Virus record (IMG/VR): IMGVR_UViG_3300004481_000261
Coordinates: 1-45,938 of that record
DNA from: a virus
Length of the DNA stretch: 45,938 nucleotides
Direction: 5' to 3' (one strand)
Positions 17,812 through 45,938 of the stretch are shown here, piece after piece. The notes under the pieces were generated by a model that saw only the letters and a list, made by a program, of their open reading frames with translations, did not search any database and was not told the origin of the DNA. The translations under genes and the position numbers were made by a program. How positions within the stretch are numbered: position 1 is the first letter of the stretch; each line of letters opens with the position of its first letter.

Positions 17812-18447
17812 ATGGAAAAAATAAACAAAATCATTGAGAGGCAAAAAGACTTCCAACGAATTGTTGGATTCCCGATTGATTCAAATCTTGAGTCAGATCG
17901 AAATGAAATGAGTGAGAAGTATATCTTCAAACTTATAGAAGAAGCAATTGAATTACGTAAAGAATTCCCTAGTGTGATGAACCCTTGGAGTAAAAAACAA
18001 AAAGAAGTAGACTTATTACGAGTGAAAGAAGAAATGTCAGACGTTCTACTATTCTTTATCAATCTTCTTGCTACTTGGAAGTTTTCATTTGAGGAGATTC
18101 TAAATGTTATTGAAGAAGTTCAGGAAAATAACTTCAGTAAAGTTGCTGAAAAGAAACTTAAGATACTTAATGAGCAGATCTTAAACATTCCAGGGTATAT
18201 TCCACTACTCGGTTATGGTAACCCTACACCTAAACGTATTCATCTCTATAAGAGTTTTAGAGATACTCACGTAATTGATGAAACTATATCATCTCGAGAG
18301 TGTTACTATACTCACCTCGTCAAGTATCTACCACCAAATAAAAACGAACCAACGGAGGATGATATATCTTTCTGGGAACCGTTTCTCGTAGAAGAAATGA
18401 AGATCGTGACAATGAATCCTGACGTTGAAATAATAAGACACTACTAA
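17812..18447 (+). CDS. All-alpha NTP pyrophosphohydrolase (MazG / dimeric dUTPase-dCTPase superfamily) with a degenerate UDG-family-4-like C-terminal segment
   Basis: KLIEEAIELRKEFP...W...EEMSDVLLFFINL matches the EExxE...E..D metal-binding helices. The C-terminus ECYYTHLVKYLPPNKNEPTEDDISFWEPFLVEEMKIV aligns by eye with the UDG4 core (Y-I-T-N-x-V-K-C-R-P-P-x-N-R-x-P). Confidence 0.6.
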   Translation: MEKINKIIERQKDFQRIVGFPIDSNLESDRNEMSEKYIFKLIEEAIELRKEFPSVMNPWSKKQKEVDLLRVKEEMSDVLLFFINLLATWKFSFEEILNVIEEVQENNFSKVAEKKLKILNEQILNIPGYIPLLGYGNPTPKRIHLYKSFRDTHVIDETISSRECYYTHLVKYLPPNKNEPTEDDISFWEPFLVEEMKIVTMNPDVEIIRHY

Positions 18448-18448
18448 C

Positions 18449-19000
18449 ATGAAACCTATTCACATTCTCATTGACGGTTCGGACAACCTTGGTAAAACTA
18501 CAGTCATTCAATTACTTTCACGTAAGTTGAATCTGCCTGTAATTAAGATGCCAAACACTGAAAAGTTCATTGAAGCAGGAAACGTTGAAGAGTTCTCTAA
18601 GTTCTACAATGAAACCCTTGTCCAGTTTAGTGAAAGTTCATTCATAATGGATAGAGGGTTTACAAGTACTCTAGTATATTCTAAAGTATTCGCTCGAAAA
18701 AATGATGTATCTTACATCGACGGTATTCAAAATAAGTTGAAACCTACAGTATTTATTCTTACTGGACGTACTAGAAAGAATTCAGCATACGGTACATTTT
18801 ACTTCACTTCATTCAGTCAAGACCCTGTCTATTCTGATACAGAAAAAACACGAATTGACGAAGAGTTCTGTGAGTTAGCTCGTAAGAAAAGTTATCATCT
18901 CATCAGTGTTATTGGAAAATCTCCACTAGAAATATGTGATGAAATCATGTCAAAGATCGATAAACCTGTAACAAACTTCTATGGAGAATCAGACTTCTAA
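18449..19000 (+). CDS. P-loop dNMP/thymidylate-kinase-like protein
   Basis: The N-terminus IHILIDGSDNLGKTTVIQLL parallels Tmk (IVIEGLEGAGKTT). The 183-aa size is typical. Confidence 0.6.
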   Translation: MKPIHILIDGSDNLGKTTVIQLLSRKLNLPVIKMPNTEKFIEAGNVEEFSKFYNETLVQFSESSFIMDRGFTSTLVYSKVFARKNDVSYIDGIQNKLKPTVFILTGRTRKNSAYGTFYFTSFSQDPVYSDTEKTRIDEEFCELARKKSYHLISVIGKSPLEICDEIMSKIDKPVTNFYGESDF

Positions 19001-19916
19001 AAAATATATCTTAGGTGGAGGTATTTCTGGATTAGTTTTTCAGTACTACAACCCAGAGTTCACAATCATCACTCCAGACATTGGAGGAATGTATGCAAAT
19101 TCGTATGTCGTATGGTTACACCAAACTGCAGAAACTCAAAAACTTCTTAGAGATCTTGGTTACCAAAACGTAGATAAACTTCATAAGAAAAGCTATATGG
19201 GTTACTACAATCAAGGGTGGATTAGTGAACAACTATCACCTGAGATGAACCTACGACTTATTCAGAAAAAAATGAGTAAGTGGGATGAACCAGTAGATAA
19301 GACGTTCATCCCTGCTAGTTATGATATGTCTACGAGGTCAGCAAAATCAGTGAACTACATGAACGTCCTAGACGTTAACCCATCGGAAATAATTAAAAAA
19401 TTAGATGAACAACACGGAAACATCATCAATGGGATTGTTACAAAAATTACACCCACAACAATTACTTATCAATCGAATGGTGAACTTATTGAAGTTGAAT
19501 ATGACGAACTCATCTCAACTATACCTGCACCCTTCTTTTGGAAAGCCTATGGAGATGAAAGAAACTTCAGATACGAACCAATAACGAATATCATTACTAC
19601 TGTAAAGCCAAAGGAGTTCAATGATAAATTCGAAATGGTTTATTACGGAGATGAAGTATCGTTCACTCGTATCTCACATCTACAGGGTAAGTATGCGATA
19701 GAGTTTACAGGGGAAATAACTAAGGAGCAGTTTGAAGAATTGTTCCCAGAGTATCCTGTAGACAAGGTCGTACTTATTAAGCAAGGCAGAATCTTCAAAG
19801 AAGAGAATGAACCACCACAGAACAATATCACTTTTCTAGGCAGATTCGGTAAATGGGAATTCGGAATTACTACAGAGCACATTATTAAAGAAAGTATAGA
19901 ATACAAAAACAAATGA
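18981..19916 (+). CDS. FAD-binding flavoenzyme, UDP-galactopyranose-mutase (Glf)-like
   Basis: The N-terminus is a dinucleotide-binding fold, KYILGGGISGLVF...PDIGGMY. The C-terminus NITFLGRFGKWEFGITTEHIIKESIEY parallels the Glf C-terminus (LLGRLaeYrYydMhqvI). Confidence 0.5.
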   Translation: MENQTSKKYILGGGISGLVFQYYNPEFTIITPDIGGMYANSYVVWLHQTAETQKLLRDLGYQNVDKLHKKSYMGYYNQGWISEQLSPEMNLRLIQKKMSKWDEPVDKTFIPASYDMSTRSAKSVNYMNVLDVNPSEIIKKLDEQHGNIINGIVTKITPTTITYQSNGELIEVEYDELISTIPAPFFWKAYGDERNFRYEPITNIITTVKPKEFNDKFEMVYYGDEVSFTRISHLQGKYAIEFTGEITKEQFEELFPEYPVDKVVLIKQGRIFKEENEPPQNNITFLGRFGKWEFGITTEHIIKESIEYKNK

Positions 19917-20122: not shown

Positions 20123-21031
20123 ATGCGAATTCTCATTACTGGTTCTAGCGGAATGATAGGTTCTGCCTTGGTTGATAAGTTGATCGAAGAAGGTCACGAT
20201 GTCATTGGACTCGACGAAGCTTATCCAATCTTTAACAATTACCAACCGACGATACTTCACGATCTTAGACATCAAATTGAAAACTCAAAGATTCAAGAAA
20301 GTGAAATGAAGTTTGACTTGATGATTCACTTGGCAGCAAATGCTAGAGTATATAACTCTGTGAAGAATCCTAAATTAAGTTACGACAATATCTCAATGAC
20401 TTACTGGGCACTTGAGTTTGCTCGTAAGAATCACATTCCGAAGTTTCTATTCGCTTCAAGTCGTGAGACTTACGGTAACGGAAATGAACTTCCTGTAGCA
20501 GAAGATAAATCATCACATCGTAAGACTGAGAGTCCATACACTGCAAGTAAAATATCAGGTGAAGCATATTGCTACGCTTATGCAGAATGTTATGGTATGG
20601 ACACTAAGATTATGAGATACTCTAACGTCTATGGTAAATACGACAACTCAGATCGGTTCGTACCCAAAGCCATCAAAAAGATGAAGGCAAATGAACCATT
20701 CGAAATCTGGGGAGATGGTAAGTCAATGTCATTCACTTATATTGATGATTGTATTGATGGTACAATGACTCTCATAAATAGATGGGATGAAGCTAAGGAT
20801 CGTGAGTACAACATTGCATCAGATACTCAAGATAGTCTCATTAGTGTAGCAGAGAGAATCAAGAAAGAACTTTTCTCATCTTCAGGTATTCTTATTACTG
20901 ATAACCTCGTAGGTGAAGTTATGAACTTTCAAGCAGATATTACAAAAATGAAGAACCTTGGTTGGACCCCGAAAGTCTCAATCGAAGAAGGAATAAATAA
21001 ATCAATCAACTGGTATGCCTCACAATCCTAA
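20123..21031 (+). CDS. NAD-dependent nucleotide-sugar epimerase/dehydratase (extended SDR)
   Basis: ILITGSSGMIGSAL provides GxxGxxG, ASSRETYG the catalytic Ser/Thr, and YTASKISGE the YxxxK motif. Confidence 0.8.
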   Translation: MRILITGSSGMIGSALVDKLIEEGHDVIGLDEAYPIFNNYQPTILHDLRHQIENSKIQESEMKFDLMIHLAANARVYNSVKNPKLSYDNISMTYWALEFARKNHIPKFLFASSRETYGNGNELPVAEDKSSHRKTESPYTASKISGEAYCYAYAECYGMDTKIMRYSNVYGKYDNSDRFVPKAIKKMKANEPFEIWGDGKSMSFTYIDDCIDGTMTLINRWDEAKDREYNIASDTQDSLISVAERIKKELFSSSGILITDNLVGEVMNFQADITKMKNLGWTPKVSIEEGINKSINWYASQS

Positions 21032-22079
21032 CCTCGAACCAAAACACCACGCATTTAGAGTACTCTTTGGTCAGAAACCATTGACGAAGTTCAAGGACTA
21101 CCGCAAAGCAATTAAGGTAGAACTTCTATCACCAGAACCTAAGGAAGCAATGATGAAGAGAATCTATGATTTTGTAAAAGCTACTTGGTCAGAAGATGGA
21201 AGAGAATCAGAACGTGCAACAAAAGAAGAAATGGTAGATGCTATGAACCAGATGCTATCAGGAAAAGCACTCGGACTTGGTCTAGAGACTATCAACTTCA
21301 CTTTTAGAATTTCAGGAATCACTCGTGTAGATACTCACCAGATTGTTCGTCAGAGAATCGGTGTTACGTTCAGCCAACAGTGTACCGGAGATCGTATGAT
21401 GCACCACAATGATATTCTTACTGAAGAGTGTATCGCAGGTAGTAGTTCAATCAACGACTTCATCGAAGCAACTCTATGTAACAAAGTTACTTATGCTGAT
21501 ATGATTGACCGTGGTATTTCTATCCAAGCTGCTAGAACTATTCTTCCTCATAACTTGGAGACATTTATCTTCATGAATACTAACCTCATGACATTGATGT
21601 TCTTCCACCAGAAAAGAATTGATGATGGTAGTCAAACTTGGCAGATAAATGAAATTGCTCAGCAGATGGCTGATGTAGTCTGTGAAGCTTATCCAGAGCT
21701 CAAGGAGGTATTCGAAAAGAACAAAAAGAGGTTTAAGTTCCAGAAGGAAGCAAGTGCTGATCGTAAGAATCTTTTCTCTACAGGTCTCTATGTACCTAAA
21801 GATGATGAGTTTGAGTACCACGAACGTGACTTCCTTTACGCTAAAAAGAAGGAGGAAATGCACTTCACAAATACTCCAATCTCAACGAAATACTTCTGGG
21901 GACTTACTGAAGTTACTGCAGAGGAATACAATCTTATTCAGAATCTCTATCTAGCAAATAACAAGAGAGTTCATGAAGAACAACCGTCAAACCTAGACAT
22001 CTTCACTCTTAATAGCGATACAAACAAGAAGATAAATAAAATACTCGACAATGCTAAATCAGAAACCACAGGAATTTGA
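21015..22079 (+). CDS. Divergent flavin-dependent thymidylate-synthase (ThyX)-like protein
   Basis: AARTILPHNLETFIFMNTNLMTLMFFHQKRIDD matches the ThyX core (aR.lLP....t....t.N.R.l.hf..lR). The ThyX signature RHRxxSxxxxSxR is altered to RQRIGVTFSQQCTGDR. At 354 aa it is longer than typical ThyX. Confidence 0.6.
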   Translation: MPHNPNLEPKHHAFRVLFGQKPLTKFKDYRKAIKVELLSPEPKEAMMKRIYDFVKATWSEDGRESERATKEEMVDAMNQMLSGKALGLGLETINFTFRISGITRVDTHQIVRQRIGVTFSQQCTGDRMMHHNDILTEECIAGSSSINDFIEATLCNKVTYADMIDRGISIQAARTILPHNLETFIFMNTNLMTLMFFHQKRIDDGSQTWQINEIAQQMADVVCEAYPELKEVFEKNKKRFKFQKEASADRKNLFSTGLYVPKDDEFEYHERDFLYAKKKEEMHFTNTPISTKYFWGLTEVTAEEYNLIQNLYLANNKRVHEEQPSNLDIFTLNSDTNKKINKILDNAKSETTGI

Positions 22080-22569
22080 TACCTTCGTTGATGCCCTAAA
22101 GGCTACAATCACAGAAAAAGGTTTTAAGCAGGTAGACAATAGACTTAACCGTACTACTCAGAACCTATCTAGCCACTTCATTGAGATTAGTAATAGCAAA
22201 GTTCTAGAATGGTTACGTCGGGAAGAAGTTCTTGAAAAATATAAGGATGATTCTAAACGAATGTATTCTTCTTTCAAGAAAGCAATAGTTGAAGCAAAGA
22301 AAGACCCTAACTCTCGTAGACTAATGGTCTTCAATGATAGTCGGTTCAATGAAATCTATCAATGTTTTACTTCATTCCACTTTGTCTATACTAAAAGGAA
22401 TGAGTTTGACATGATAGTATACCAACGATCATCAGATCTTATTAAACTTAAAGACGACCTAGTTTTCTTTGCCAACCAGATGAAAAAGTTTGAACGAGGA
22501 ACTGACTATTATGTAACGAAACTTATCGTTATTTATGGCAGTATACATTACGAGATAGATGTGGTATAA
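22051..22569 (+). CDS. Miniature ThyA-family protein (thymidylate synthase / pyrimidine hydroxymethylase-like, 172 aa)
   Basis: KKDPNSRRLMVFN parallels DPDSRRIIVSAWN. QCFTSFHFVY parallels PCHAFFQFYV, which holds the catalytic Cys. IVYQRSSDL parallels LYQRSCDV. YGSIHYE parallels GGDTHLY. It is about 90 aa shorter than E. coli ThyA. Confidence 0.6.
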   Translation: MLNQKPQEFDTFVDALKATITEKGFKQVDNRLNRTTQNLSSHFIEISNSKVLEWLRREEVLEKYKDDSKRMYSSFKKAIVEAKKDPNSRRLMVFNDSRFNEIYQCFTSFHFVYTKRNEFDMIVYQRSSDLIKLKDDLVFFANQMKKFERGTDYYVTKLIVIYGSIHYEIDVV

Positions 22570-22579
22570 TTAAAGTATT

Positions 22580-24940
22580 ATGAAACAAAAAATGAGTGTG
22601 GTAAACACCTGGACTCGGTTCGATGACGTATATGTCTCATACTACGATTCGAATGGAGAAAGACAATCAACGAAAGTAAAAACAAAATGGTACTTTGTTA
22701 TTCACAACAACACTCTTGAGCAGGCATCTGAACTTCTTAAAACTTCTAGATATGTCTATGAGTTAGAAACAGGTGAAGAATATACTAAAATCTATTGTCA
22801 GAATTCAGAGACCTATAAGAAAACTGACCTAGTTGTTCTCTTAGAGAAAAATGGAATAGTAACCTTCGAAGGTGACTTAGCTACAGATAAGAGATGGTTC
22901 ATTGATAAGCAGGTAGAAATATCAGATCGTTATGAGAAACTGTACTTCGACATCGAGACTGATGACTCTCTGGAAAAAATTGAAATTGGACGAGATCGAA
23001 TTCTTAGTTTTGCTGCAATAGATGGCCACGGTAAGAAGTTCTTCATTATCTTAGAAGAACATACAGATGAAGCTGAAGCAAAAATGCTTGCCAAGGTTCT
23101 AAAGTTGATGGGTAAGTACGACATCATTCTTGGATGGAATAGTTCACTTTTTGACATTCCATATATCCGTGAAAGAGCATTCAAACTAAATACTCAAGAA
23201 AATGAACTACGTAAACTCTACTATGACAATGTTCGAACTGTAGCTAACTACGATCTTCTTAAGAGATTCAGACACATCTTCCGTTTCGATAGTCATATTA
23301 AGAAGTTCAATCTCAACTTCGTTAGTAACTACTTCATCGGTAAGGGAAAGGTAGATCACACTGGTGATAAGATTATCGATCTATGGAATAACAAAAAAGA
23401 TCTACTAAAAGAATACAACATTGAAGATGCTATCCTCGTAAAAGAATTAGATGAAAAACTTGGAGTGTCAGACATGATGATTCGACAATGTCAATGGTGT
23501 GGAGTTCCGGCAAGTCAGTTCGGTCTCTATGCTATCATTGATGCTTACATTCTAAAGATTGCTCATAGTGTCGGTAAGTATGGTAAGACATCTAATGCAG
23601 CAATTAGAGAACGGAATAAGAGTAATGTAAAGGGGAATCTAAACCCGGATGATGTTACAACTGATGAGAATAAATATCTAGGTGGATTGGTTCTAGACCC
23701 AGTAGTCGGAAAATATGACAGAGTCTATACGTTCGACTTCAAGAGTCTTTATCCCTCGATGATGAGAACCTCAAATATCGGTTACGACACTCTCAGATAC
23801 GTAGCAGATGACAACTGTATCATAAATCCAGGTACGAATGAACGACCTAGAAGGAGTGGACAAATCATTGAGACTTTCTTCGATAAGACTCCATCAGTTA
23901 TCAATCTAGCAATCACGAATCTTCTGACAAAAAGAACTGAATACAAGAAGTTAAAACTCAAGATGATCGAAGAAGGAACTAATCACGGACCATTATGGGA
24001 TCGAGTTGTCAGTGATGAGATTATCGTTAAGGAACTTGCTAACTCAACTTACGGTATTATGGGTCTAGAGTATGGAAGATACTTCGATGTAGATATTGCA
24101 GAGAGTATCACGTTATTCGGTCAATGGATTATTTCTTGGTCAAAAGACTACTTTGACAGTCTTGGTTATACTGTCATCTATGGAGATACTGACTCAGTCT
24201 TTGTATCGGTAGGTGATAGAATCTTAGACCTTGAAGAAGAACTTAGAAAGTTCCACGACGAACTTGGTAGAGTATTGAAGGAAGAATACAATGTCGATCA
24301 GAGTTACATTGTTCTTGAGTTCGACAAACAATACGAATCACTTATTCTTGTAGCAAAAAAGAGTTACGTAGGTCACGTGGTAAACATCGAAGGTAAGAAA
24401 ACTGATGATATTTACGCAAGAGGTATAGAATACGGAAAAAAGAATACGTTCAGTTTCGCCGCAGTTAAACAGAAAGAACTAGTCGAAGGGTTACTTCATA
24501 AGAAACTTGTAACATCTGAAGAAGTTATCGAATGGGTTAAAAAGACTAAAGAAGAGTTCAATTCGAAAGACTTTACAGTCGATGAACTAACTCTTACGCA
24601 GAAAGTAGGTAAACCGATCTCACAATATACTGGTAAAACTCAACCACTACATGTTCGCCTAGCTAAGGTGTTACAAGAAAAAACTAATCAAGTATTTACA
24701 AACGTAGAGATTGATTATGTAATTACTGATGCAAGTAAGGGTATGAACGGAGTACTTGCTGAAGACTATGATGGTACGTTTGCTAGAGACTATTACTGGA
24801 CAAACAAAACTCAACCGATTCTTGAAAGAATTACAGAAGTAGCATTTCCTGGTGTAGAGATCTTTGAGTTACCACCTAAGAAACCCCGCAAGACTAAGGA
24901 AAAAGACGTACAACCTTCACTTCTTGACTTAATACACTAG
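22580..24940 (+). CDS. polB: Family-B DNA polymerase
   Basis: Exo I is LYFDIETDD, Exo II is GWNSSLFDIPYI, and Exo III is YNIEDAILV. Motif A is DFKSLYPSMM, motif B is KELANSTYG, and motif C is YGDTDSVFV. Confidence 0.95.
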   Translation: MKQKMSVVNTWTRFDDVYVSYYDSNGERQSTKVKTKWYFVIHNNTLEQASELLKTSRYVYELETGEEYTKIYCQNSETYKKTDLVVLLEKNGIVTFEGDLATDKRWFIDKQVEISDRYEKLYFDIETDDSLEKIEIGRDRILSFAAIDGHGKKFFIILEEHTDEAEAKMLAKVLKLMGKYDIILGWNSSLFDIPYIRERAFKLNTQENELRKLYYDNVRTVANYDLLKRFRHIFRFDSHIKKFNLNFVSNYFIGKGKVDHTGDKIIDLWNNKKDLLKEYNIEDAILVKELDEKLGVSDMMIRQCQWCGVPASQFGLYAIIDAYILKIAHSVGKYGKTSNAAIRERNKSNVKGNLNPDDVTTDENKYLGGLVLDPVVGKYDRVYTFDFKSLYPSMMRTSNIGYDTLRYVADDNCIINPGTNERPRRSGQIIETFFDKTPSVINLAITNLLTKRTEYKKLKLKMIEEGTNHGPLWDRVVSDEIIVKELANSTYGIMGLEYGRYFDVDIAESITLFGQWIISWSKDYFDSLGYTVIYGDTDSVFVSVGDRILDLEEELRKFHDELGRVLKEEYNVDQSYIVLEFDKQYESLILVAKKSYVGHVVNIEGKKTDDIYARGIEYGKKNTFSFAAVKQKELVEGLLHKKLVTSEEVIEWVKKTKEEFNSKDFTVDELTLTQKVGKPISQYTGKTQPLHVRLAKVLQEKTNQVFTNVEIDYVITDASKGMNGVLAEDYDGTFARDYYWTNKTQPILERITEVAFPGVEIFELPPKKPRKTKEKDVQPSLLDLIH

Positions 24941-26871: not shown

Positions 26872-27217
26872 AGATCTACAGAGATACAAAGATGCTGTCT
26901 GGGACTATCTCTTAGAGCATAGTGATATTACTGAAGGTGGTTCTTTGTTTGTGAAGTTTCATACAAAAAGTAGGTCAGTATTCGAAGGACATGTTACTGC
27001 TAGAATAAAAGGTTACCATCGAGGGGACCCTAAAGCTAGACAACATTTCTTAGAACAAAAATCCATAGAACATGTTATAATTAAAAAATCAAAGAAAGAG
27101 AAATGGAAAGCAGGAAAGGAAGAACGTAAGAAGATACTAGATGATGTTAAGTTTGAGAACGATATAAGAAAATATCCACAAATTATTAGAATACTTTTAA
27201 GATCTGTAAGAAAATGA
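26855..27217 (+). CDS. Hypothetical basic protein (120 aa)
   Basis: Co-oriented ORF with a K/R-rich C-terminal half. Confidence 0.5.
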   Translation: MTKENKDLQRYKDAVWDYLLEHSDITEGGSLFVKFHTKSRSVFEGHVTARIKGYHRGDPKARQHFLEQKSIEHVIIKKSKKEKWKAGKEERKKILDDVKFENDIRKYPQIIRILLRSVRK

Positions 27218-28062
27218 AAATAGGATTCATCGGTCAAGGTTGGATAGGAAAGAACTACGCAGACAATTATGAGGCTAGAGGATTTGACACTGTACGTTAT
27301 TCTCTTGAACCAGAATACGTAGGAAATAAAGATAAAATTAGTGAGTGTGACATTACTTTCATTGCGGTACCAACACCGTCAACAGCGACGACTGTAGACG
27401 TAACCGCGGTGGAATCTGCATTGAAATGTATCGGCATTGGTCGTGTTGCAGTCATTAAGTCGACAGTACCTCCAGAAACTACACAGAAGTTACACAAGAA
27501 GTTTCCACGAATTATGCTTTTTCATTCTCCTGAATTCCTCAGAGAGAAGTTTGCTAGACAGGATGTAGATAAACCTGATCGAAACATCATAGGTATTCCC
27601 TATCTCAGGACGGTTGGTGAAAGAACTGCATATGAATTTGTTGCAATGAAGATTCTTAAGACTCTACCTGAAGCAACTCACGATAGAATTATTTCCTCAA
27701 CTGAGTCAGAACTCATTAAGTATGCTGGAAATGTTTTTCTTACGATGAAGGTTATTTATGCAAACATGCTATACGACTTAAGTGTTGGTTTGAATATCGA
27801 TTATGATAATGTTTCTGAGATTATGAGTTTAGACCCTCGTATCGGTGATTCACATCTTACAGTAAATGAAGGAGGTAGAGGTGCTGGTGGGCATTGTTTC
27901 ATAAAAGACTTAGAGGCATTTCGTCAGATCTATGACAAAAATACAAATAGTTTAAAAGGCCGTAACGTCATCAATGCTTTAATTATGAAAAACAACGAGT
28001 TACTAAGAAATTCAAAAAAAGACTTAGACTTACTCGAACAAATATATGGTAAAAGAATGTAG
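27214..28062 (+). CDS. UDP-glucose/GDP-mannose dehydrogenase-family protein, short form
   Basis: The N-terminus MKIGFIGQGWIG is a Rossmann fold. The active-site region LDPRIGDSHL...GRGAGGHCFIKDLEAF parallels E. coli Ugd (LDPRIGNHY...GYGGYCLPKD). At 282 aa it appears to lack the C-terminal UDP-binding domain. Confidence 0.7.
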   Translation: MKIGFIGQGWIGKNYADNYEARGFDTVRYSLEPEYVGNKDKISECDITFIAVPTPSTATTVDVTAVESALKCIGIGRVAVIKSTVPPETTQKLHKKFPRIMLFHSPEFLREKFARQDVDKPDRNIIGIPYLRTVGERTAYEFVAMKILKTLPEATHDRIISSTESELIKYAGNVFLTMKVIYANMLYDLSVGLNIDYDNVSEIMSLDPRIGDSHLTVNEGGRGAGGHCFIKDLEAFRQIYDKNTNSLKGRNVINALIMKNNELLRNSKKDLDLLEQIYGKRM

Positions 28063-29604: not shown

Positions 29605-31071
29605 TTATTGGCTAGAAAGAGTCCTTGCGGTAGTTGCTGCTACATTTCTAACAGCAGGAGCAATTTCTTTTAGTTTCTTACCTCCTTGGTAGAGTGCCTG
29701 TGCTGTAAGAGTTCTAGCAGGAGCAGATTCTGCAGCTTTTATTCCACCGAAACCAACGATACCAGCAACTGGATTTACTAAACCAAGTCCAAGTGCACCG
29801 ATTATCTCTTTCAATGAGATATGTGCTTTTTCTGCAGCACGTCCAGCAAGAGCATCATGTATTGAATGTTCCTTCGAAAGGTCTTCAAACATACCTCGAA
29901 CTTCTGTTGGTGCATTCTTTTTAACTTCTTCAGAAAGAGTTCCGTAAATGTTTTTAAGATTCTGTTTAGAGAATGTACTTTTATTTGCTAACCAAGCAGA
30001 ATCACTTAAGGAATCTCCAATTCTACGACGTAGTTTATCGAGTTCTGGAAGAGTCAATTTGTTCTGTTTCAATAAACCAGCACCACCAGGTACATCACTC
30101 TGTATATCTGCAAGAAGTTCTTTACGTGTGATTGCTCCACCTTTGTCATTGATGTTCTTGACTAGAGAATCTAACCAAGTATTTCGATCAATCATCTTTG
30201 TTTTATATCCAGGAGCATTGAGTGCTTCACCGATAGATGTATTGAGGTTAGTAACCATCTTTTTAGAGTTATCAAGAAGTGAAGATACTGTACCGATTCT
30301 TCCACCTTCAAGAAACTTATCAGACATATCCTTTCCCTTCATAAGTTCCCTCTTAGTTTGGTTGAGGAAACTTCTAGTCATACTTCTAGGAAGAGTATCA
30401 ACAAGACCACCAACTGCTTTTGTTACTGCAATATTCGCTGTAGGAAAAAGTGAAGATACTACAGCATTACCACCTGTATTTCTTACAATGTCTGTAAAAC
30501 TCTTATCGTCTTTCATCCCTTGAGCTGCACCAAAGTAAGCTCCTTGAATTCCTGACTGGAGAGATTTACCTACTAGATTCGAAACTGTAGGGTTCGCCTT
30601 TGCGCTATTAAGAAGATCTGTTGCAATCTTTCCACCAGTACCTAGAGTTTTACCTCCTAGACTTTGAGGTGTCAGGAGCATCATTGCAGCGTCACCGATA
30701 ACTTGCTTAGGTGAAGGTGCACTCGTATCGTACATTGATGTACTTCCTTCTGGAACCATACCGAGTTTCTCTTTTACTGCAGTAACACCTAATCCACCGA
30801 GAGTTCCAATAGCCTGTCCAACTTTCTCACCAGGCATTATATCTTGAATTCCACGAGTAATAGAATTGTCTAAGATTTTACCGTATATCGAATCGTTTGG
30901 ATTTGTTCCAAGAGTACCACTATGAGGGTCAGGTGCTAGAGTCTTTGAAGGTGCTGGAGCAGTCCGTTGAGGAGTTATACCTAATTTCATTGCTACTTCC
31001 TCGACATCCTTCTGAGTAGGAGTTCCTTCGAAGTTTACTGTTTGTCCATTTTCGAATTTGATTGTAGCCAT
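29605..31071 (-). CDS. Large virion/internal protein, function unknown (488 aa)
   Basis: Gly/Ala/Ser-rich ORF in the late block. No motif recognised. Confidence 0.45.
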   Translation of the reverse strand: MATIKFENGQTVNFEGTPTQKDVEEVAMKLGITPQRTAPAPSKTLAPDPHSGTLGTNPNDSIYGKILDNSITRGIQDIMPGEKVGQAIGTLGGLGVTAVKEKLGMVPEGSTSMYDTSAPSPKQVIGDAAMMLLTPQSLGGKTLGTGGKIATDLLNSAKANPTVSNLVGKSLQSGIQGAYFGAAQGMKDDKSFTDIVRNTGGNAVVSSLFPTANIAVTKAVGGLVDTLPRSMTRSFLNQTKRELMKGKDMSDKFLEGGRIGTVSSLLDNSKKMVTNLNTSIGEALNAPGYKTKMIDRNTWLDSLVKNINDKGGAITRKELLADIQSDVPGGAGLLKQNKLTLPELDKLRRRIGDSLSDSAWLANKSTFSKQNLKNIYGTLSEEVKKNAPTEVRGMFEDLSKEHSIHDALAGRAAEKAHISLKEIIGALGLGLVNPVAGIVGFGGIKAAESAPARTLTAQALYQGGKKLKEIAPAVRNVAATTARTLSSQ

Positions 31072-31072
31072 A

Positions 31073-32428
31073 TTATGGTGTTACTGTCCACTTAATTCCA
31101 GTAGCTGTCTGACCTGAAGTTGCTGGTGCAGACATTAAGTCTTTACTTGTTGATGAACTTACACTAGGTCCTCCCATCGAAGCAGGTGCATCTTTGAGTT
31201 TGTCTGCAAGTTTTGTTTGGATTGTTTCGAGTCGTTCTTTAATGTATTTCTCACTCTGAGTACCTAGACCTTCAAACCCTGTTGACATTGATTTGATGAA
31301 CTCCATATCTTTGTCAGACATAGCACCTTTAAGAAGTCCTAGATTATCTCTTGCTAGAATGGCTCCAAGTTGCTGTGCTTTAGCTGAAGCATCACCATAA
31401 TCTGTAGACCAATTTCCAACCCAAGTACTACTATATCCACCAAGAGGTTTGTAGTCTTTATTCGTCATCATATCATTCACGATATCCTGTGCATCTGTCA
31501 TAAGTGCATACACATTTGCAGAACGACCTCCTTGTTCAGCAAGACCTGCATAAACTTCGTTACGTAATGCTTGAGCTTCTTTACCTGAACCCTTGATGAG
31601 AGTTTCAACATCTCCTCCACCAGAGTTGATGATTTTGAGAATGTTTTGAGCAGCAGGAGAAAGATTACTTGCACTTCCTGGTAGGTTACCACTTGTAGAA
31701 GTATTTGAAGTATTGTTTTTATTGATTTCTGACTGAATCTTACTGAGTTCCAATTCACCTTTTCGTATATTCTGTCTGTACTCGGTAGAACTCTGATATT
31801 TCTTAATAGCAGTCTGATAGTCATCTGTAGGAAGAATTCCAGCAGATGGTGCAGTTTGCATGAGTGAAAGTGTACCTTGTTTCTGAGTATCATTAAGAGT
31901 TCTTGCAGACTTCTGGTCTGGAGTTTCGTAACTTGAAGCATTAAAAAAGTTACTAAGGAAGTTTGTACGAGCAGTCGTCATAGCATCTTGTTCCTTGATG
32001 ATAAGATCTGATAGACTCTTTGCTTTGTTTGCATCATTAGACATTAAGAGTTCATCTTTTTGTTTCGTAAGATCTTTGATTCTCTTATCATGAGATGCTT
32101 GCATATAATTAAGAGCAACAGGCATCTGTGCAAAACCTCTTTGACCTTCGAACGTTTGAGTATTACTCTTAGTATCTGCAATGTTAGTATCTTCTACAGC
32201 AGTTCCGTACTCACTATTCAATCTCTTAGCAGTTGCATCAGCACCTTGTTCTGTTAGAGTTTTAGCAGAAGCATATCGATCCATTATAGATTGAGGGTCA
32301 TATGAACCGGTCAGTGCAGCAATGTTAGGGTCAGTAGGTGTAACTGCACCAGATGAAGAAGTCGAAAGAAGACGATTCTTAACCTGTGTTTCTGCTGATG
32401 TCGGTGTTGTAAGTGTTGGAGGGTTCAT
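31073..32428 (-). CDS. Large virion/internal protein, function unknown (451 aa)
   Basis: Late-block ORF, rich in S/T/Q/N with helical stretches. Confidence 0.45.
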   Translation of the reverse strand: MNPPTLTTPTSAETQVKNRLLSTSSSGAVTPTDPNIAALTGSYDPQSIMDRYASAKTLTEQGADATAKRLNSEYGTAVEDTNIADTKSNTQTFEGQRGFAQMPVALNYMQASHDKRIKDLTKQKDELLMSNDANKAKSLSDLIIKEQDAMTTARTNFLSNFFNASSYETPDQKSARTLNDTQKQGTLSLMQTAPSAGILPTDDYQTAIKKYQSSTEYRQNIRKGELELSKIQSEINKNNTSNTSTSGNLPGSASNLSPAAQNILKIINSGGGDVETLIKGSGKEAQALRNEVYAGLAEQGGRSANVYALMTDAQDIVNDMMTNKDYKPLGGYSSTWVGNWSTDYGDASAKAQQLGAILARDNLGLLKGAMSDKDMEFIKSMSTGFEGLGTQSEKYIKERLETIQTKLADKLKDAPASMGGPSVSSSTSKDLMSAPATSGQTATGIKWTVTP

Positions 32429-32429
32429 G

Positions 32430-33596
32430 TTAGTTTAGGTTCGTATCAGTACTAAAACCAAGTGTAGGATATCTACGTTGGCTTGGATAACGTTGCTTAA
32501 GTGGCGTGACAATTTCCATAATCTTCTGACGTGCAATGTTCATATCATTATATTCTCCTGTAATAGAGAAAATGATTTCTAGAACTGAATTGACGAAAGG
32601 TTCAGTTGCTATATCCCATCTACCTGTCCACATCGGAGTGTCAGTCGTAGCTGCCGCTGAAGCAAATACCTGTGATTGAACTCCTAGAAGAGTTGTAACC
32701 ATATTCGTCGAGTAGTAAGTAAGAGTAAGAGGTATATTTTCTGAAATAAATACGTTCTGGAAGTAGAATCCAGTAGCAGAAGGGTTTACTGAAAACGCTA
32801 CAGTCATCTGCAGATAACCAATCGAGGTGATTGTGGGTGTTCCAACAGTTGTCGGAGATGACCATGCAAACTTACAACGGTTCCAACCCACGATAAATGA
32901 TTGTCCTAGATAGTTTGTTGTAGATGTCTGAGAATAATAATTTGAAGAATCAGTTCCCCATTTTAGGGTTACTGAAGTGAGATTCGTAACTGTAGGGAAA
33001 TAAACATCTAGATAGAGATTACTTCTGTTCTGGTACATTGTCATGTCTAGAACAGTAAACGTAGAGTTTGTAAGAGTTCCTGTAGTTCCTGAATAGTCAA
33101 AAGAAACAGAAGAAGGCCAAGAAAATCCTTCGTAGTTATTCGTAGAAACATTTGAGATTGCAGTAGCACCTACCCAAGTTCCTTGTCCGTTATACGATGT
33201 AGCAGCATTTAGAGTCGTGTAGTTACCTGCAAGACTTTTTACATTAAGATACTGTACACCTGACTCAATTGCTACAGCCATCTTCTGAGGATAAAGAGCC
33301 CTTGCGAAGTTCATTGGAGATACTAAAGTGTATGAATCTCTTTTAAGATCTGAAGTATACGGAGCTAAAGTGATAGGATATTTGAAGTCACTCTGAACTG
33401 CGTATGTATAGATTCCTGGGTTGTAGTTGAAATTGACTTTCTTAATAGTCCAAGGCCAGTCATGAACTTCCCCCCAGATCTGAAGTACTGAATTGATCGC
33501 TCGGAAACCAACCGTAGACATATCGATAGAACCTGAACCTGTATCTCTACGTCTATCGTTGATGAGAGTATTGAAGTATGCTAGGTCGGTTGACAT
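32430..33596 (-). CDS. Structural protein, function unknown (388 aa)
   Basis: Late-block ORF, rich in beta-type residues (T/S/Y/N). Confidence 0.45.
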   Translation of the reverse strand: MSTDLAYFNTLINDRRRDTGSGSIDMSTVGFRAINSVLQIWGEVHDWPWTIKKVNFNYNPGIYTYAVQSDFKYPITLAPYTSDLKRDSYTLVSPMNFARALYPQKMAVAIESGVQYLNVKSLAGNYTTLNAATSYNGQGTWVGATAISNVSTNNYEGFSWPSSVSFDYSGTTGTLTNSTFTVLDMTMYQNRSNLYLDVYFPTVTNLTSVTLKWGTDSSNYYSQTSTTNYLGQSFIVGWNRCKFAWSSPTTVGTPTITSIGYLQMTVAFSVNPSATGFYFQNVFISENIPLTLTYYSTNMVTTLLGVQSQVFASAAATTDTPMWTGRWDIATEPFVNSVLEIIFSITGEYNDMNIARQKIMEIVTPLKQRYPSQRRYPTLGFSTDTNLN

Positions 33597-33639
33597 ATAT
33601 TATATCGTACTACTTTTAATTGATAACATACACTGGACA

Positions 33640-35307
33640 CTACTTAAGTTTAGTAAGTGGTTCATAATCTATTTCAATCATACGAGGTAACCAATCTGTC
33701 GTATCTCCAAGAATGGAATCTGTAGGCCAAACCATCTTAAACTGTATACCAAAAACTGCATCCTTAGCACCTTGGTTTATTGGGATATACTTATACCCTT
33801 GAGCTAAGTCATTTCTTGTAATAGTTGATGTGATATTTGCGGTAGTTGCTTGGTTAAGATATACAGTAAGAGTACCTGCGGTTGTTGTTCCTGAAGTTAT
33901 CGAAGCAGCATTCTGGTAAACTCTAATGTAATTTACTTTAGAAAGAGGTGGTAGAATTATGACAGGAGTGTAAACATTTCCAGCAAGAGCATATTGACCA
34001 ATACTATTGATAGTACCTAAGTCGAATGGATAGAACTTACTAATAATGTTTGACCCATTGTTACACGCCAAAGTGAAACCTTGTCTAGAAGTTCTATATC
34101 CTGAAGAACCTGAATATGTATTTGCAGCACCATAAAGTAATGCCCCGAATGTTACAGTTGACTCTGGTGTAGATGTACCTGTCACTTTAGTCTGTCCAAT
34201 TTTTGCAAGTACATCATTGCCACCACGCTTGATTGGTCCGTGTGCATAGATTGCACCATCAGTACCACCCCAAACAGAGATAAGATCTGTATTCGAAAGT
34301 GAATCAGGGTACATCGGAGCTGCACCAAGACCGAGTTCTTGTATTACTTCAAAAGAAGAACCTGTATATCTACGAATCTGAGTCATACCACTTGAAGATA
34401 TTGTGAAGATTCGAATTTCACCGTTAGGTGCTACATAGATATTTTTAATAGCTTTGACTCCAGTAAGTGGTATATAGTCTTGCATACTAATAACTGTCGA
34501 TTGTCTATTCCAGATGTAAACTCCACAGGGTGTCGAAAAGTTTGCACCATTTGCTGCAATACCAATGACATCGAGTGTTGACTGGTGTACGACAATAAAC
34601 ATATTCCCACGGTAGTCTACAGCATCAGTAAGTCTGAAATATGTAGGGAAAAGAAGGACATTTGCAGTTATAGTACCGTTAGTTCCTCCGGCTGAAGTAC
34701 CATCAATCTTATGTACAGCATTATCAGCAAAGAGATAAGCATAACTGTTATCCGCGACTCTCATGAAACAGTAATTCGATGTAATCGTCTGGCTAAATGC
34801 ACCTGAAACTGTAGTAGTCAGCCAGACATCGTCGTTCGAAGCAAATGGCATTGTAGCAATACCTACCTGAAGAATATCGGATTTTTCATAAACATAAAAG
34901 AGTTTTCTTACACCATTTATTTGGTAGATTTCTAAATCAAAACCTACAGGAGTTCCTGTTGCACCTAATCCTCTCACCTTAGTAAGAACTCTATCGTCTA
35001 AGTCATCACCTTGGAAGATCTGGACTTCAGTCTTGTCCATAAAGTAGTAGTCGTCATTTACTGCATCATAAATTGCACTTGAAGCAAGACCTGATAGACT
35101 TCCACCAGAAAAAGTACAGTCTGTTAGGACTGAGTTAGAAGGTGATAAGTAACCCGGTCGAATGTAGGGATTAAAAAACCCACCAACAAGTTTACCAGCT
35201 TCTACTAAATAGTCAGTAGCAGGTGTTGGTACTGTCTGGTCGTCATAACCGTACCAGTTACCTCCGAGACCTCCACCACCTGTGACATCAATGTGTAATT
35301 TTGCCAT
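33640..35307 (-). CDS. Structural protein, function unknown (555 aa)
   Basis: Late-block ORF. No motif recognised. Confidence 0.45.
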   Translation of the reverse strand: MAKLHIDVTGGGGLGGNWYGYDDQTVPTPATDYLVEAGKLVGGFFNPYIRPGYLSPSNSVLTDCTFSGGSLSGLASSAIYDAVNDDYYFMDKTEVQIFQGDDLDDRVLTKVRGLGATGTPVGFDLEIYQINGVRKLFYVYEKSDILQVGIATMPFASNDDVWLTTTVSGAFSQTITSNYCFMRVADNSYAYLFADNAVHKIDGTSAGGTNGTITANVLLFPTYFRLTDAVDYRGNMFIVVHQSTLDVIGIAANGANFSTPCGVYIWNRQSTVISMQDYIPLTGVKAIKNIYVAPNGEIRIFTISSSGMTQIRRYTGSSFEVIQELGLGAAPMYPDSLSNTDLISVWGGTDGAIYAHGPIKRGGNDVLAKIGQTKVTGTSTPESTVTFGALLYGAANTYSGSSGYRTSRQGFTLACNNGSNIISKFYPFDLGTINSIGQYALAGNVYTPVIILPPLSKVNYIRVYQNAASITSGTTTAGTLTVYLNQATTANITSTITRNDLAQGYKYIPINQGAKDAVFGIQFKMVWPTDSILGDTTDWLPRMIEIDYEPLTKLK

Positions 35308-35308
35308 A

Positions 35309-36004
35309 TTATTTTTTCTGAATTAGTTCGAAATACTTTGAACGAATAGTTCTAGATGTTGCTCCTGTTACAGTAATTGTTTGAGTAAACATGCCTAGAC
35401 TTGTATCTAAAGGATTCATGAGGTTTGTAGTGATTTGTCCTTTTTCTATACCATCTACTAAAAACTTTACACAAACTCCTGGGATATATCTAAACTCCAA
35501 CTTGTAGTAAGTATTTGCAGAGTAAGTCTGTAATGAAACACTTGTAGTTCCTGAAACGTTTGAAGAAGAACCTTTGATTGTACCATTCAGGAATTGGAAT
35601 CCAATTTCACCATCTGCTGATTGCATCGTAATAACACTTGCATCAATATCAGTCGTAGCAGTTACTTTAGAAAGAACTCTAAATCTTAGTTCTTTGTTCG
35701 CTACAAGTCTGTTATTTGCTGCTCCTGATAGAAGAACGTAATCAGTACCTGTCGCAGTAGTAACATAAATACCGTCAGAATCTACATCACCTGTTAGGAG
35801 AGTTCCAGCGACAACATATCCTGCAATAGACTCAAAGTTACTAGAGTAGTAGTAATACGTATCCCAAACTACATCTAGAATGTTGTCCTGTATTGTCTGT
35901 ACTAAAATATCTTTAGAAGGAACATCAAGGTTACGGTTAACCCCTGGATTTGTTTCCAGTCGAGTTAGTCTATTCTTGATGTCAGCAATTTCGGTTGGGT
36001 TCAT
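35309..36004 (-). CDS. Structural protein, function unknown (231 aa)
   Basis: Late-block ORF with a short N-terminal helical segment followed by a beta-rich region. Confidence 0.45.
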   Translation of the reverse strand: MNPTEIADIKNRLTRLETNPGVNRNLDVPSKDILVQTIQDNILDVVWDTYYYYSSNFESIAGYVVAGTLLTGDVDSDGIYVTTATGTDYVLLSGAANNRLVANKELRFRVLSKVTATTDIDASVITMQSADGEIGFQFLNGTIKGSSSNVSGTTSVSLQTYSANTYYKLEFRYIPGVCVKFLVDGIEKGQITTNLMNPLDTSLGMFTQTITVTGATSRTIRSKYFELIQKK

Positions 36005-45868: not shown

Positions 45869-45938
45869 AAGCAGCGATCTAACCAACTACATTCAGACCT
45901 TAACCAAGAAAAGCACTTTGTATTGTAATGAGCGTAGA
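45869..45938. repeat. Terminal direct repeat, right copy
   Basis: Identical to bases 1-70. Confidence 0.95.

Follow-up and report, generated by a model that had tools for sequence, protein, structure and literature searches.

Why a phage would keep genes for both types of thymidylate synthase side by side, and what the two products might make together, is the question raised by the complete genome of an uncultured phage (IMG/VR record IMGVR_UViG_3300004481_000261). The window analyzed here is the whole stretch of 45,938 nt, with a genome G+C content of 38% (range 34–46% within the window). It encodes a ThyX-like protein of 354 aa (21015–22079, + strand), followed by a miniature ThyA-like protein of 172 aa, termed mini-ThyA (22051–22569, + strand); the presence of both ORFs was verified. 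A previous sequence-only reading had described them as two overlapping genes of the thymidylate synthase (TS) family. This was confirmed, with exact coordinates, by Pfam and by profile-profile comparison in hhalign (99.5% for T. maritima ThyX and 99.1% for E. coli ThyA). The motifs quoted in that reading are all present (RQRIGVTFSQQCTGDR and N-L-M in the ThyX-like protein; DPNSRR, QCFTSFHF, YQRSSD and GSIHY in mini-ThyA). The gene overlap, which had been regarded as unusual, is ordinary here: it comprises 29 nt, and overlaps of 20 nt (Tmk-like kinase and 311-aa protein) and 17 nt (epimerase and ThyX-like protein) occur in the same operon. The co-occurrence of the two synthase types had also been considered odd. 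This premise is weaker than stated, as phage T4 has, besides its thymidylate synthase (td), a dCMP hydroxymethylase of the TS family (gp42), but the strict pairing, the miniaturization and the variant ThyX are indeed unusual. Both proteins are real, foldable and under purifying selection.

No cultured close relative of the phage was found by megablast, and its family B DNA polymerase is at most 28% identical to relatives from cultured phages. A tblastn search of phage records with mini-ThyA gave no matches at 1e-3. In a full-text literature search, no description was found of the short ThyA-like family, of a ThyX clade with the RQR and Cys substitutions, or of their pairing.

The variant ThyX-like protein

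The ThyX-like protein belongs to a family of at least 145 proteins. The ORF matches Pfam Thy1 (PF02511; 1.3e-22, 80.9 bits, cut-off 24.8) and reaches 60.5 bits with the NCBIfam thyX equivalog TIGR02170, which is below the cut-off of 87.9. Foldseek searches with its AF2 model (pLDDT 89.9) returned ThyX structures as best matches (E ~1e-9, TMt up to 0.77). The core spans approximately residues 50–235 and is flanked by family-specific extensions of about 50 aa at the N-terminus and 120 aa at the C-terminus, in agreement with the sequence-only reading. That these extensions represent the folate-binding segments missing from mini-ThyA was ruled out by hhalign (probabilities of at most 1.1%).

Residue conservation was counted across 120 family members. 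The dUMP-binding arginines R112, R114, R174 and R201 are present in all of them, and R127, equivalent to R90 of the T. maritima (Tm) enzyme, is an arginine in 101 (84%). Roles in dUMP binding have been described for Tm R78, R80, R90, R147 and R174 (PMC6514825, PMC3498832). Equivalents of Tm Glu58 and Gln75 are retained as well. The ThyX motif RHRxxSxxxxSxR is unmatched; the protein reads R-Q-R-I-G-V-T-F-S-Q-Q-C-T-G-D-R at this site. RHR is changed to RQR by Gln113 at the position of His79 (116 Gln, 4 Asn), and all 120 members contain a cysteine (Cys123) at the position of Ser88, directly followed by a loop insertion of two residues, Thr-Gly. A leucine (Leu88) occupies the position of Thr55, which corresponds to Ser71 of the M. 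tuberculosis (Mtb) enzyme, in 120/120 members, and no member harbors an arginine at position 192, the equivalent of Arg165 (Mtb Arg190). All three contacts to the phosphate and ribityl moieties of FAD (Mtb Ser71, His96 and Arg190) are lost in this clade. In the hhalign alignment, Tm His53 corresponds to Leu86 and Tm His59 to Thr92 of the window protein. The ThyX-like protein of the cultured Geobacillus phage GR1, which infects G. stearothermophilus ATCC 10149, has the same Cys-Thr-Gly-Asp loop, but its flavin-contact positions have retained RHR, Ser and Lys.

The changed positions had been interpreted as substrate contacts. This holds for Ser88, which contacts dUMP, but His79 and Arg165 are contacts of FAD and not of the substrate (PMC6514825). 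Because the changes concern flavin contacts and the dUMP-binding arginines are fully conserved, the earlier proposal of an altered substrate or one-carbon unit is unsupported for the ThyX-like protein on the grounds given for it. The structures listed by Foldseek include that of an S88C mutant of ThyX (PDB 3g4c). ThyX with this substitution still works as a thymidylate synthase, and a cysteine at this position is thus compatible with flavin-dependent thymidylate synthase (FDTS) activity. However, the loss of three FAD contacts and the equivalog score below the cut-off mean that ordinary FDTS activity is not assured.

The miniature ThyA-like protein

Mini-ThyA matches Pfam Thymidylat_synt (PF00303) with 9.6e-7 and 28.6 bits (cut-off 24.3), and scores approximately 24 bits with the curated ThyA equivalogs, the cut-offs of which are 108–405. 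Its AF2 model (pLDDT 94.1, pTM 0.89) matched ThyA and T4 dCMP hydroxymethylase (dCH) in Foldseek (E ~1e-10, TMq ~0.7). Internal gaps had been recognized before and correspond to E. coli residues 35–43, 49–57, 70–91 and 100–106 in hhalign. That account was incomplete, as mini-ThyA ends at about E. coli residue 213 and all ThyA sequence beyond is absent. Missing are the small domain with the folate-binding Trp80 and Trp83 as well as the C-terminal tail, by which the site is sealed. The family comprises 104 representative clusters, nearly all of 140–190 aa, and the longest variant (P0199, 286 aa) carries an N-terminal extension with no Pfam matches. The short length is thus a family trait, which argues against a pseudogene, and pN/pS amounts to 0.20–0.48 with saturated pS.

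Positions of 116 family members were mapped onto E. coli ThyA. Of the mapped residues, only Cys105, Arg89, Arg126 and Asp136 are fully invariant (116/116). According to this mapping Cys105 is the catalytic cysteine, and Arg89 and Arg126 bind phosphate; Cys148, Arg123' and Arg124' of T4 dCH have the same roles (PMC6400193). In ThyA the equivalent of Arg89 enters the active site of the partner subunit, and its invariance suggests that the ThyA-type dimer is kept. Asp136 occupies the specificity position Asn177 (E. coli numbering), where the uracil-type Asn is absent. In T4 dCH, an Asp at this position (Asp179) is the determinant for cytosine (PMC6400193). Due to this replacement, mini-ThyA is predicted to bind a cytosine deoxynucleotide, and for this protein the proposal of an altered substrate or one-carbon unit gains support. 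Asp136 was absent from the sequence-only reading and is the most informative residue of mini-ThyA. The three nearest full-length relatives all harbor Asp at the Asn177 position. The closest of them (P0224) has PDB 1njc/1njd as its best match, whose printed sequence also reads GVPFDIASYAL.

His166 is present in every sequence covering that column, Ser127 in 109 and Asp129 (Asp169 in E. coli) in 105 of the 116 members, and Tyr64 (Tyr94) is a Tyr or Phe in 102. In the region of Glu58, where the alignment is of low confidence, the aligned positions 50 and 53 vary (E/D/K/N). The signature proposed for hydroxymethylases consists of Asp/Glu at Cys-3 and a Ser/Thr-x-Tyr motif (Ser94 and Tyr96; PMC6400193). 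Mini-ThyA of the window contains Ile102 at Cys-3, and the family has Ile, Val or Thr but never Asp/Glu at this position. The Ser/Thr-x-Tyr motif is not conserved either, as the residue two positions before Tyr64 varies.

Gene pairing, the module and its possible function

The gene for the ThyX-like protein precedes that for mini-ThyA in every testable locus, including those of distant lineages, and the pair is also carried by phage GR1. In one locus (L045) a NUDIX gene lies between the two, and in the locus with the most distant mini-ThyA (L047, a 7-kb contig) the upstream ORF of 442 aa is not ThyX-like. The pair is part of a module of five genes, which encode an NTP pyrophosphatase, a Tmk-like kinase, the 311-aa protein, the ThyX-like protein and mini-ThyA. 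This module adjoins a DNA polymerase gene and is conserved in about 20 loci and across phages with PolB, PolA and PHP polymerases. The ThyX-like protein and mini-ThyA are a co-inherited pair inside a pyrimidine-deoxynucleotide module.

The first member (17812–18447, + strand, 211 aa) resembles NTP pyrophosphohydrolases (phrog_173, 8e-8; Pfam dUTPase_2, 1.3e-4) and has a partial family-4 UDG-like C-terminus (NCBIfam UDG_fam4, 3e-5, residues 159–200), which is a fuller UDG4 domain (6.9e-13) in the homolog of 283 aa from L002. It is followed by a Tmk-like P-loop nucleotide kinase of 183 aa (18449–19000, + strand), assigned by its syntenic position, phrog_761 thymidylate kinase (9.7e-11) and a match below the cut-off to Pfam Thymidylate_kin (1.8e-5). 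The conserved 311-aa protein (18981–19916, + strand) contains an N-terminal GxGxxG and a C-terminal GRFxxWxY motif, occurs in the module wherever a window-clade locus covers that position and is possibly a flavoprotein. None of its 47 homologs is annotated; rare fusions link it to a dCMP deaminase domain (P0298, 3.4e-18) or a dUTPase_2-like domain (P0297, 3.5e-4). An assignment as UDP-galactopyranose mutase was rejected, as the matches were sub-significant (Pfam E = 0.005 in one of 13 members; PDB E ~0.5). An NAD-dependent sugar-nucleotide epimerase/dehydratase of 302 aa (20123–21031, + strand; Pfam Epimerase, 9.4e-51), with dTDP-glucose 4,6-dehydratase as best NCBIfam match below the cut-off, is a variable insert of the module. 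It is found in L004, L007, L008/9, L010/11, L017, L025 and L027 and is missing from L002, L003, L012, L013, L015, L016 and L018–L021. Downstream, the pair is followed by the family B DNA polymerase (22580–24940, + strand; Pfam DNA_pol_B, 4.8e-52), which presumably uses the dNTPs produced. It is not universal at this place, as L045 has Pol A and GR1 a PHP-domain polymerase. Among the scanned window ORFs, many of them without matches in Pfam and PHROGs, no DNA glycosyltransferase, dCMP deaminase, DHFR or RNR was detected with these databases. Glycosyltransferases are located near the module in GR1 and L002, and sugar-nucleotide enzymes in the window.

For this pair a division of labor as in T4 is tentatively favored, judged from sequence features. 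The ThyX-like protein would still bind dUMP and make dTMP, with a remodelled flavin site, like td beside gp42. Mini-ThyA would be a minimal enzyme of the TS fold, active and probably homodimeric, that binds dCMP; Cys105 would attack C6, and one-carbon chemistry at C5 would yield 5-hydroxymethyl- or 5-methyl-dCMP. The conservation of Asp129 and Tyr64 suggests that methylene-tetrahydrofolate is still the donor. The NTP pyrophosphatase could remove the canonical dNTP and the kinase could phosphorylate the new dNMP; after its incorporation by the phage polymerase, a modified cytosine would be present in the phage DNA. The nearby glycosyltransferases or sugar-nucleotide enzymes would fit a later glycosylation of a hydroxymethyl base. 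L045 encodes a canonical dCMP deaminase, which fits this reading since it would supply dUMP to the ThyX-like enzyme. However, mini-ThyA lacks the Trp80/Trp83 region, the C-terminal tail and a contact to PABA of the Trp82 type, and does not show the hydroxymethylase signature at Cys-3 or at Ser/Thr-x-Tyr. The loss of FAD contacts in 120/120 ThyX-like members with the NCBIfam score below the cut-off, and the lack of detected glycosyltransferases in the window, also count against it, and two independent enzymes would not need strict pairing.

The adjacency, which is strict in every testable locus despite different polymerases, would fit an obligate complex acting on one substrate, in which the nucleotide site and Cys come from mini-ThyA and the ThyX-like protein handles flavin and folate. 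Mini-ThyA lacks exactly the cofactor-binding parts and keeps the nucleotide-binding and catalytic parts, while the ThyX-like clade has both extensions conserved and its cofactor site remodelled; the Cys-Thr-Gly-Asp loop, unlike the flavin-site changes, is common to GR1, whose ThyX-like protein also has a mini-ThyA partner. Nevertheless, such a complex is considered unlikely. Searches of both families revealed no fusions of the two proteins, the extensions do not resemble the ThyA segments that mini-ThyA lacks, the sequence identity of one protein does not follow that of the other between loci (51% versus 62% in L002, 67% versus 39% in L012) and the NUDIX gene separates the pair in L045. Moreover, uracil-type Arg contacts in the ThyX-like protein versus a cytosine-type Asp in mini-ThyA suggest two different substrates. 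As an example of such a complex, a flavin subunit might pass methylene and/or hydride to Cys-activated dCMP on the mini subunit. A split hybrid enzyme for C5 modification of pyrimidines, combining the chemistries of both known types of thymidylate synthase, with dCMP and Cys on mini-ThyA, methylene and/or hydride from the ThyX flavin and the 311-aa protein as possible flavin reductase, is distinctly unlikely. It would yield a modified deoxycytidylate without using a classical folate lid.

Doubtful as well is that the module increases dTTP supply without DNA modification, the ThyX-like protein making dTMP and mini-ThyA being a dCMP-binding accessory. The latter might be a regulator or a non-canonical, Cys-dependent dCMP-to-dUMP deaminase feeding ThyX, and the kinase and NTP pyrophosphatase might merely raise dTTP for a genome of this G+C content. 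ThyX, Tmk and dUTPase-like genes are common auxiliary genes of phages, a zinc-type dCMP deaminase is absent from the window, the G+C range of the window fits, and the loss of the folate lid would suit a folate-independent reaction. But deamination or mere binding leaves the conserved pterin contact Asp129 and Tyr64, the base for C5-H removal, unexplained, and L045 holds both mini-ThyA and a canonical dCMP deaminase. Furthermore, no deaminase with a TS fold is known.

It is improbable that the modification is carried out by the ThyX-like protein itself, e.g. as a flavin-dependent hydroxymethylase of dUMP or as an enzyme that makes another 5-substitution. In this case Cys123 might be a new nucleophile and the flavin might be reduced by the 311-aa protein, or by a nitroreductase in GR1. 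The invariant Cys for Ser88, the RQR motif, the loss of the His53, Thr55 and Arg165 equivalents, the score below the thyX equivalog cut-off and a possible redox protein upstream in the window clade and in GR1 point in this direction. However, GR1 combines RHR, Ser and Lys at the flavin contacts with the same Cys loop and partner, S88C ThyX remains a thymidylate synthase, every uracil and phosphate contact is canonical and the 311-aa protein is only a putative flavoprotein. Finally, that the 172-aa ORF is a decaying thyA remnant or a chance ORF, for which the marginal Pfam score and about 90 missing residues could speak, and which the sequence-only reading had allowed for as an unfoldable pseudogene, is refuted to the point of extreme improbability by about 100 representative clusters of equally short length, invariant catalytic residues, a pLDDT of 94 and purifying selection (pN/pS 0.2–0.48 at saturated synonymous sites).

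If mini-ThyA is active, it would by a wide margin be the smallest working enzyme with a thymidylate synthase fold. It would then define the minimal catalytic core of this textbook family of drug targets and illustrate how the binding of cofactors can be simplified or outsourced. The clade of variant ThyX proteins, with Cys for Ser88 and a remodelled flavin site, bears on the long-debated use of a nucleophile by FDTS. The conserved module of five genes is a candidate for a new way of introducing modified cytosine, or a different modified pyrimidine, into phage DNA. This would be relevant to how phages escape restriction and CRISPR defences, and the enzymes of the module are a possible source for the production of modified nucleotides. 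Since GR1 is cultured, the function of the pair is directly testable.

Comparison with known systems

In T4, gp42 acts beside td, the dCTPase/dUTPase gp56 and the dNMP kinase gp1. The module resembles this set in combining an NTP pyrophosphatase, a dNMP kinase and a separate thymidylate synthase with a phage polymerase. Mini-ThyA shares with gp42 the TS fold, the catalytic Cys, the Arg pair from the other protomer and an Asp at the specificity position (Asp136 versus Asp179), and both are without a C-terminal tail of the TS type. However, mini-ThyA is about 75 residues shorter (172 versus 246 aa) and lacks the Trp82/Ile81/Val85 region, of which Trp82 contacts PABA in T4 dCH (PMC6400193). It also lacks a residue of the Asp145 type at Cys-3 and the Ser94-x-Tyr96 signature. 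In addition, the companion thymidylate synthase is of the ThyX type here but of the ThyA type in T4. With canonical ThyX proteins (T. maritima TM0449, M. tuberculosis) the ThyX-like protein shares the fold and the dUMP-binding arginines, but differs in RQR, the invariant Cys with the Thr-Gly insertion and the two extensions, and hydrophobic residues replace the FAD contacts Thr55/Ser71 and Arg165/Arg190 as well as His53. The UMP/dUMP methylase PolB of Streptomyces cacaoi (PDB 4p5b) is among its best structural matches. PolB acts in nucleoside-antibiotic biosynthesis and not in a phage replication module. It represents a ThyX fold recruited to a non-housekeeping pyrimidine modification with altered substrate scope, but has other loops and substrate determinants and no ThyA-like partner. 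The engineered L. casei TS N229D and E. coli TS N177D, which accept dCMP, have an Asp at the specificity position like mini-ThyA. In contrast to mini-ThyA, these enzymes and the natural TS-like proteins of the Asp type are full-length with an intact folate lid.

The two overlapping genes and their phage

Both overlapping open reading frames of the sequence-only reading were recovered on the plus strand, one of 354 aa at 21015-22079 (ThyX-like) and one of 172 aa at 22051-22569 (mini-ThyA), and every motif quoted for them was found in the sequences. Their overlap of 29 nt is uninformative by itself, since neighbouring genes of this operon regularly overlap by 17-29 nt. The longer frame matches Pfam Thy1 (1.3e-22, residues 50-228), the shorter one gives a marginal match to Thymidylat_synt (9.6e-7, 28.6 bits, cut-off 24.3), and PHROGs returns thymidylate synthase (TS) for both. 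As judged from profile-profile comparison (hhalign), any doubt about fold-family membership is removed: the probability was 99.5% for ThyX-like against T. maritima ThyX and 99.1% (E = 7e-18) for mini-ThyA against E. coli ThyA.

ThyX-like, whose homologs number at least 145 and are each about 350 aa long, scores 60.5 against the NCBIfam thyX equivalog, under the cut-off of 87.9; the core of its model (pLDDT 89.9) matches ThyX structures. The homologs of mini-ThyA (n = 28, 48-78% identity) are nearly all 160-196 aa long. An exhaustive profile search over 1.84 billion representatives yielded 104 clusters, nearly all of 140-190 aa, and only three full-length TS-like proteins, at marginal E-values. 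This indicates that the shortness is a family trait and not a truncation. The AlphaFold2 model of mini-ThyA is compact (pLDDT 94.1, pTM 0.89) and matches the structures of ThyA and T4 dCMP hydroxymethylase (E ~1e-10, query TM ~0.7), as well as full-length phage TS/dCH models in BFVD. Synonymous sites of both genes are saturated between relatives (pS 0.66-0.96) with pN at 0.13-0.41, which indicates purifying selection. The family-wide short length, the confident model and this selection rule out the earlier alternative that the 172-aa frame is a pseudogene.

Comparison of the window ends showed positions 1-70 to be identical to 45869-45938, which indicates a complete, circularly closed phage genome of ~45.87 kb. 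It encodes a terminase, a DnaB-like helicase, a helicase loader, a family B polymerase, RusA and an exonuclease. No close cultured relative was found by megablast, and no phage record holds a polymerase more than 28% identical to this one. Most of the large, presumably structural minus-strand ORFs (2046-4070, 6111-8609, 29605-35307, 38747-40549 and 41736-43256) have no Pfam or PHROG match, which places the lineage far from characterised phages. On the same strand, a protein with papain-like cysteine protease and peptidoglycan-binding domains (36001-37134) is a possible lysin, and its neighbour with a Laminin_G_3/concanavalin-like domain (37455-38747) a possible receptor-binding or tail protein. 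Neither start codon of the pair has a Shine-Dalgarno-like sequence ahead of it (20990-21020 and 22020-22060), and the upstream sequence is A/T-rich in both cases. A species-level genome collection gave a single match, L049, a contig of 2.6 kb from the bin of an Ignavibacteriaceae MAG. Taken with the upstream sequences, this binning hints weakly at a host among Bacteroidota or Ignavibacteriota.

Active-site residues

Residues of mini-ThyA were assigned to E. coli ThyA by two independent and agreeing alignments, HMMER against PDB and hhalign. Arg31 corresponds to Arg21, Tyr64 to Tyr94, Ser88-Arg89-Arg90 to Ser125-Arg126-Arg127, Cys105 to Cys146, Gln125-Arg126-Ser127 to Gln165-Arg166-Ser167, Asp129 to Asp169, Asp136 to Asn177 and His166 to His207. 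Nothing in mini-ThyA corresponds to the E. coli segments 35-43, 49-57, 70-91 (with Trp80 and Trp83) and 100-106, or to the sequence beyond about residue 213 with its C-terminal tail. Among 116 members, exactly four mapped residues are invariant, Arg89, Cys105, Arg126 and Asp136. His166 is kept in all sequences that cover its column, Ser127 in 109 and Asp129 in 105 members, and position 64 is Tyr or Phe in 102. Thus the half of TS that binds the nucleotide and carries out catalysis is intact, and the half that forms the folate lid has been lost. Arg126 of ThyA extends into the active site of the partner subunit, so the invariance of its equivalent Arg89 implies that the dimer is probably retained.

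The specificity residue, Asp136 at the position of Asn177, had been overlooked in the sequence-only reading. An aspartate also occupies this position in the three full-length proteins closest to the family. One of them, P0224, has its best PDB match in 1njc/1njd, which we take to be the N229D mutant of L. casei TS; the printed sequence likewise reads GVPFDIASYAL. In T4 dCMP hydroxymethylase the equivalent of Asp136 is Asp179, which makes the enzyme select dCMP and not dUMP and donates a proton to N3 of the cytosine (PMC6400193). A cytosine nucleotide is therefore the predicted substrate of mini-ThyA. The proposed hydroxymethylase signature consists of an Asp or Glu three residues before the Cys plus Ser/Thr-x-Tyr (PMC6400193). 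Mini-ThyA harbors Ile, Val or Thr at the former position, Leu-like as in TS and not Asp/Glu, and has no conserved Ser/Thr-x-Tyr, so by its residues it fails this signature. On the other side, a TS-type hydride transfer would be hard to reconcile with a protein that lacks any lid; the group added may be a methyl or a hydroxymethyl.

ThyX-like was mapped onto M. tuberculosis ThyX (HMMER) and T. maritima ThyX (hhalign), and its residues were tabulated over 120 members. The dUMP-binding Arg112, Arg114, Arg174 and Arg201 (T. maritima Arg78, Arg80, Arg147 and Arg174) are kept in all of them, as are Glu91 (Glu58) and Gln109 (Gln75); Arg127 (Arg90) is Arg in 101. The Ser88 position is occupied by Cys in 120/120, followed by a two-residue insertion (Thr-Gly). 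The His79 position harbors Gln (116/120) or Asn (4/120), Thr55/Ser71 is always replaced by Leu, His53 by Leu or Met, and no member has Arg at the position of Arg165/Arg190. In M. tuberculosis ThyX, His96, Ser71 and Arg190 contact the FAD phosphate and ribityl, and Arg95, Arg199, Arg87, Ser105 and Arg107 contact dUMP (PMC6514825). This indicates a clade with a conserved uracil-nucleotide site and a remodelled flavin site. The earlier proposal that the altered residues contact substrate thus holds for Ser88 only. ThyX-like also has conserved extensions, ~50 aa long at the N-terminus and ~120 aa at the C-terminus.

Pairing of the two genes

The survey took in 35 loci from metagenomes, several from viruses and, in addition, several long contigs. 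Wherever a full-length long ThyX-like gene was present together with DNA beyond its 3' end, a mini-ThyA gene lay downstream. The metagenome and viral scans gave 18 distinct loci with the pair; it was also present in the window, L043/L044, L045 and L049, whose contig reaches only into the C-terminal part of the ThyX-like gene. The genes are directly adjacent in the window and L043/L044, and pairing is retained with the highly diverged mini-ThyA P0196 (E = 2e-20) and in L045, whose phage has a polymerase of the Pol A type and also encodes a dCMP deaminase. In L045 (5525-5992 and 8531-11409) a NUDIX hydrolase gene is inserted between the two genes, mini-ThyA carries an unannotated N-terminal extension of 135 aa, and the polymerase is followed by a 280-aa dCMP-deaminase-domain protein.

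The cultured Geobacillus phage GR1 (OK896991) encodes a ThyX-like protein (34% identical, 5e-46), immediately followed by a 151-aa mini-ThyA homolog (2e-8). It retains RHR, Ser and Lys at the flavin-contact positions and shares the Cys-Thr-Gly-Asp-Arg loop with the window clade. This indicates that the Cys loop, and not the flavin-site change, is common to all ThyX-like proteins paired with mini-ThyA. In this part of GR1 (7286-7885 and 4552-5931), a nitroreductase/dihydropteridine-reductase gene is located directly upstream of the ThyX-like gene. Genes for a glycosyltransferase, an HD-domain protein, a nucleoside 2-deoxyribosyltransferase, a dUTPase and a NUDIX protein are nearby, and the region looks like a possible DNA-modification neighbourhood.

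The nucleotide module and a proposed T4-like reading

The conserved module order is NTP pyrophosphohydrolase-like protein, Tmk-like kinase, 311-aa protein, pair and polymerase, the following genes all being on the plus strand. The first product (17812-18447, 211 aa) joins an NTP-pyrophosphohydrolase-like N-terminus to a ~45-residue fragment of a family-4 uracil-DNA glycosylase domain; its relatives are ~211 aa or ~275-300 aa long, with a fuller glycosylase domain in the longer ones. The Tmk-like kinase is encoded at 18449-19000. The 311-aa protein (18981-19916), conserved in the module, contains GxGxxG and GRFxxWxY motifs; none of its 47 family members is annotated, and similarity to UDP-galactopyranose mutase is sub-significant only. 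Two rare fusions, with a dCMP deaminase domain (P0298, 3.4e-18) and, weakly, with a dUTPase_2-like domain (P0297, 3.5e-4), place it in pyrimidine nucleotide metabolism. A full-length SDR epimerase/dehydratase (20123-21031) and a short UDP-glucose/nucleotide-sugar dehydrogenase-like protein (27214-28062, 282 aa) are encoded within the replication module, each present only in some relatives. Of a 413-position model, the latter covers positions 72-293 only, so that its C-terminal domain seems to be absent. Searches of the window revealed no glycosyltransferase.

Phage T4 combines a thymidylate synthase with a TS-family dCMP-modifying enzyme, an NTP pyrophosphatase, a dNMP kinase and a phage polymerase. 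From residue patterns and gene context we infer functions for the pair and module, and the most economical reading, held tentatively, follows this logic: ThyX-like would act as thymidylate synthase and mini-ThyA as dCMP-modifying enzyme. It does not account for folate binding by a TS core that has no lid, for the remodelled flavin site and the Cys fixed in place of Ser88, or for the two genes never having been found apart. For these reasons a hybrid mechanism, in which both proteins form an obligate complex of any kind, is kept alive as an unlikely alternative that would accommodate strict pairing, the missing lid and the altered flavin site with its Cys; the specific flavin-plus-Cys version is more doubtful still. 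However, no fusions of the two proteins were found among the homologs, the ThyX-like extensions do not resemble the ThyA parts absent from mini-ThyA, and the sequence identity of one protein does not follow that of the other from locus to locus. Plain dTTP supply, with mini-ThyA as a dCMP-binding or deaminating accessory, is improbable as well, and it is very unlikely that ThyX-like is itself the modifying enzyme.

The full-text literature search returned no description of the short ThyA-like family, the RQR/Cys ThyX clade or their pairing, and in public records ThyX-like, mini-ThyA and the 311-aa proteins carry either no annotation or a generic one. Neither the two folds nor the general logic is new. 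Under the T4-like reading, the NTP pyrophosphatase would clear the canonical dNTP, and the dNMP kinase and phage polymerase would be further members of a T4-like set.
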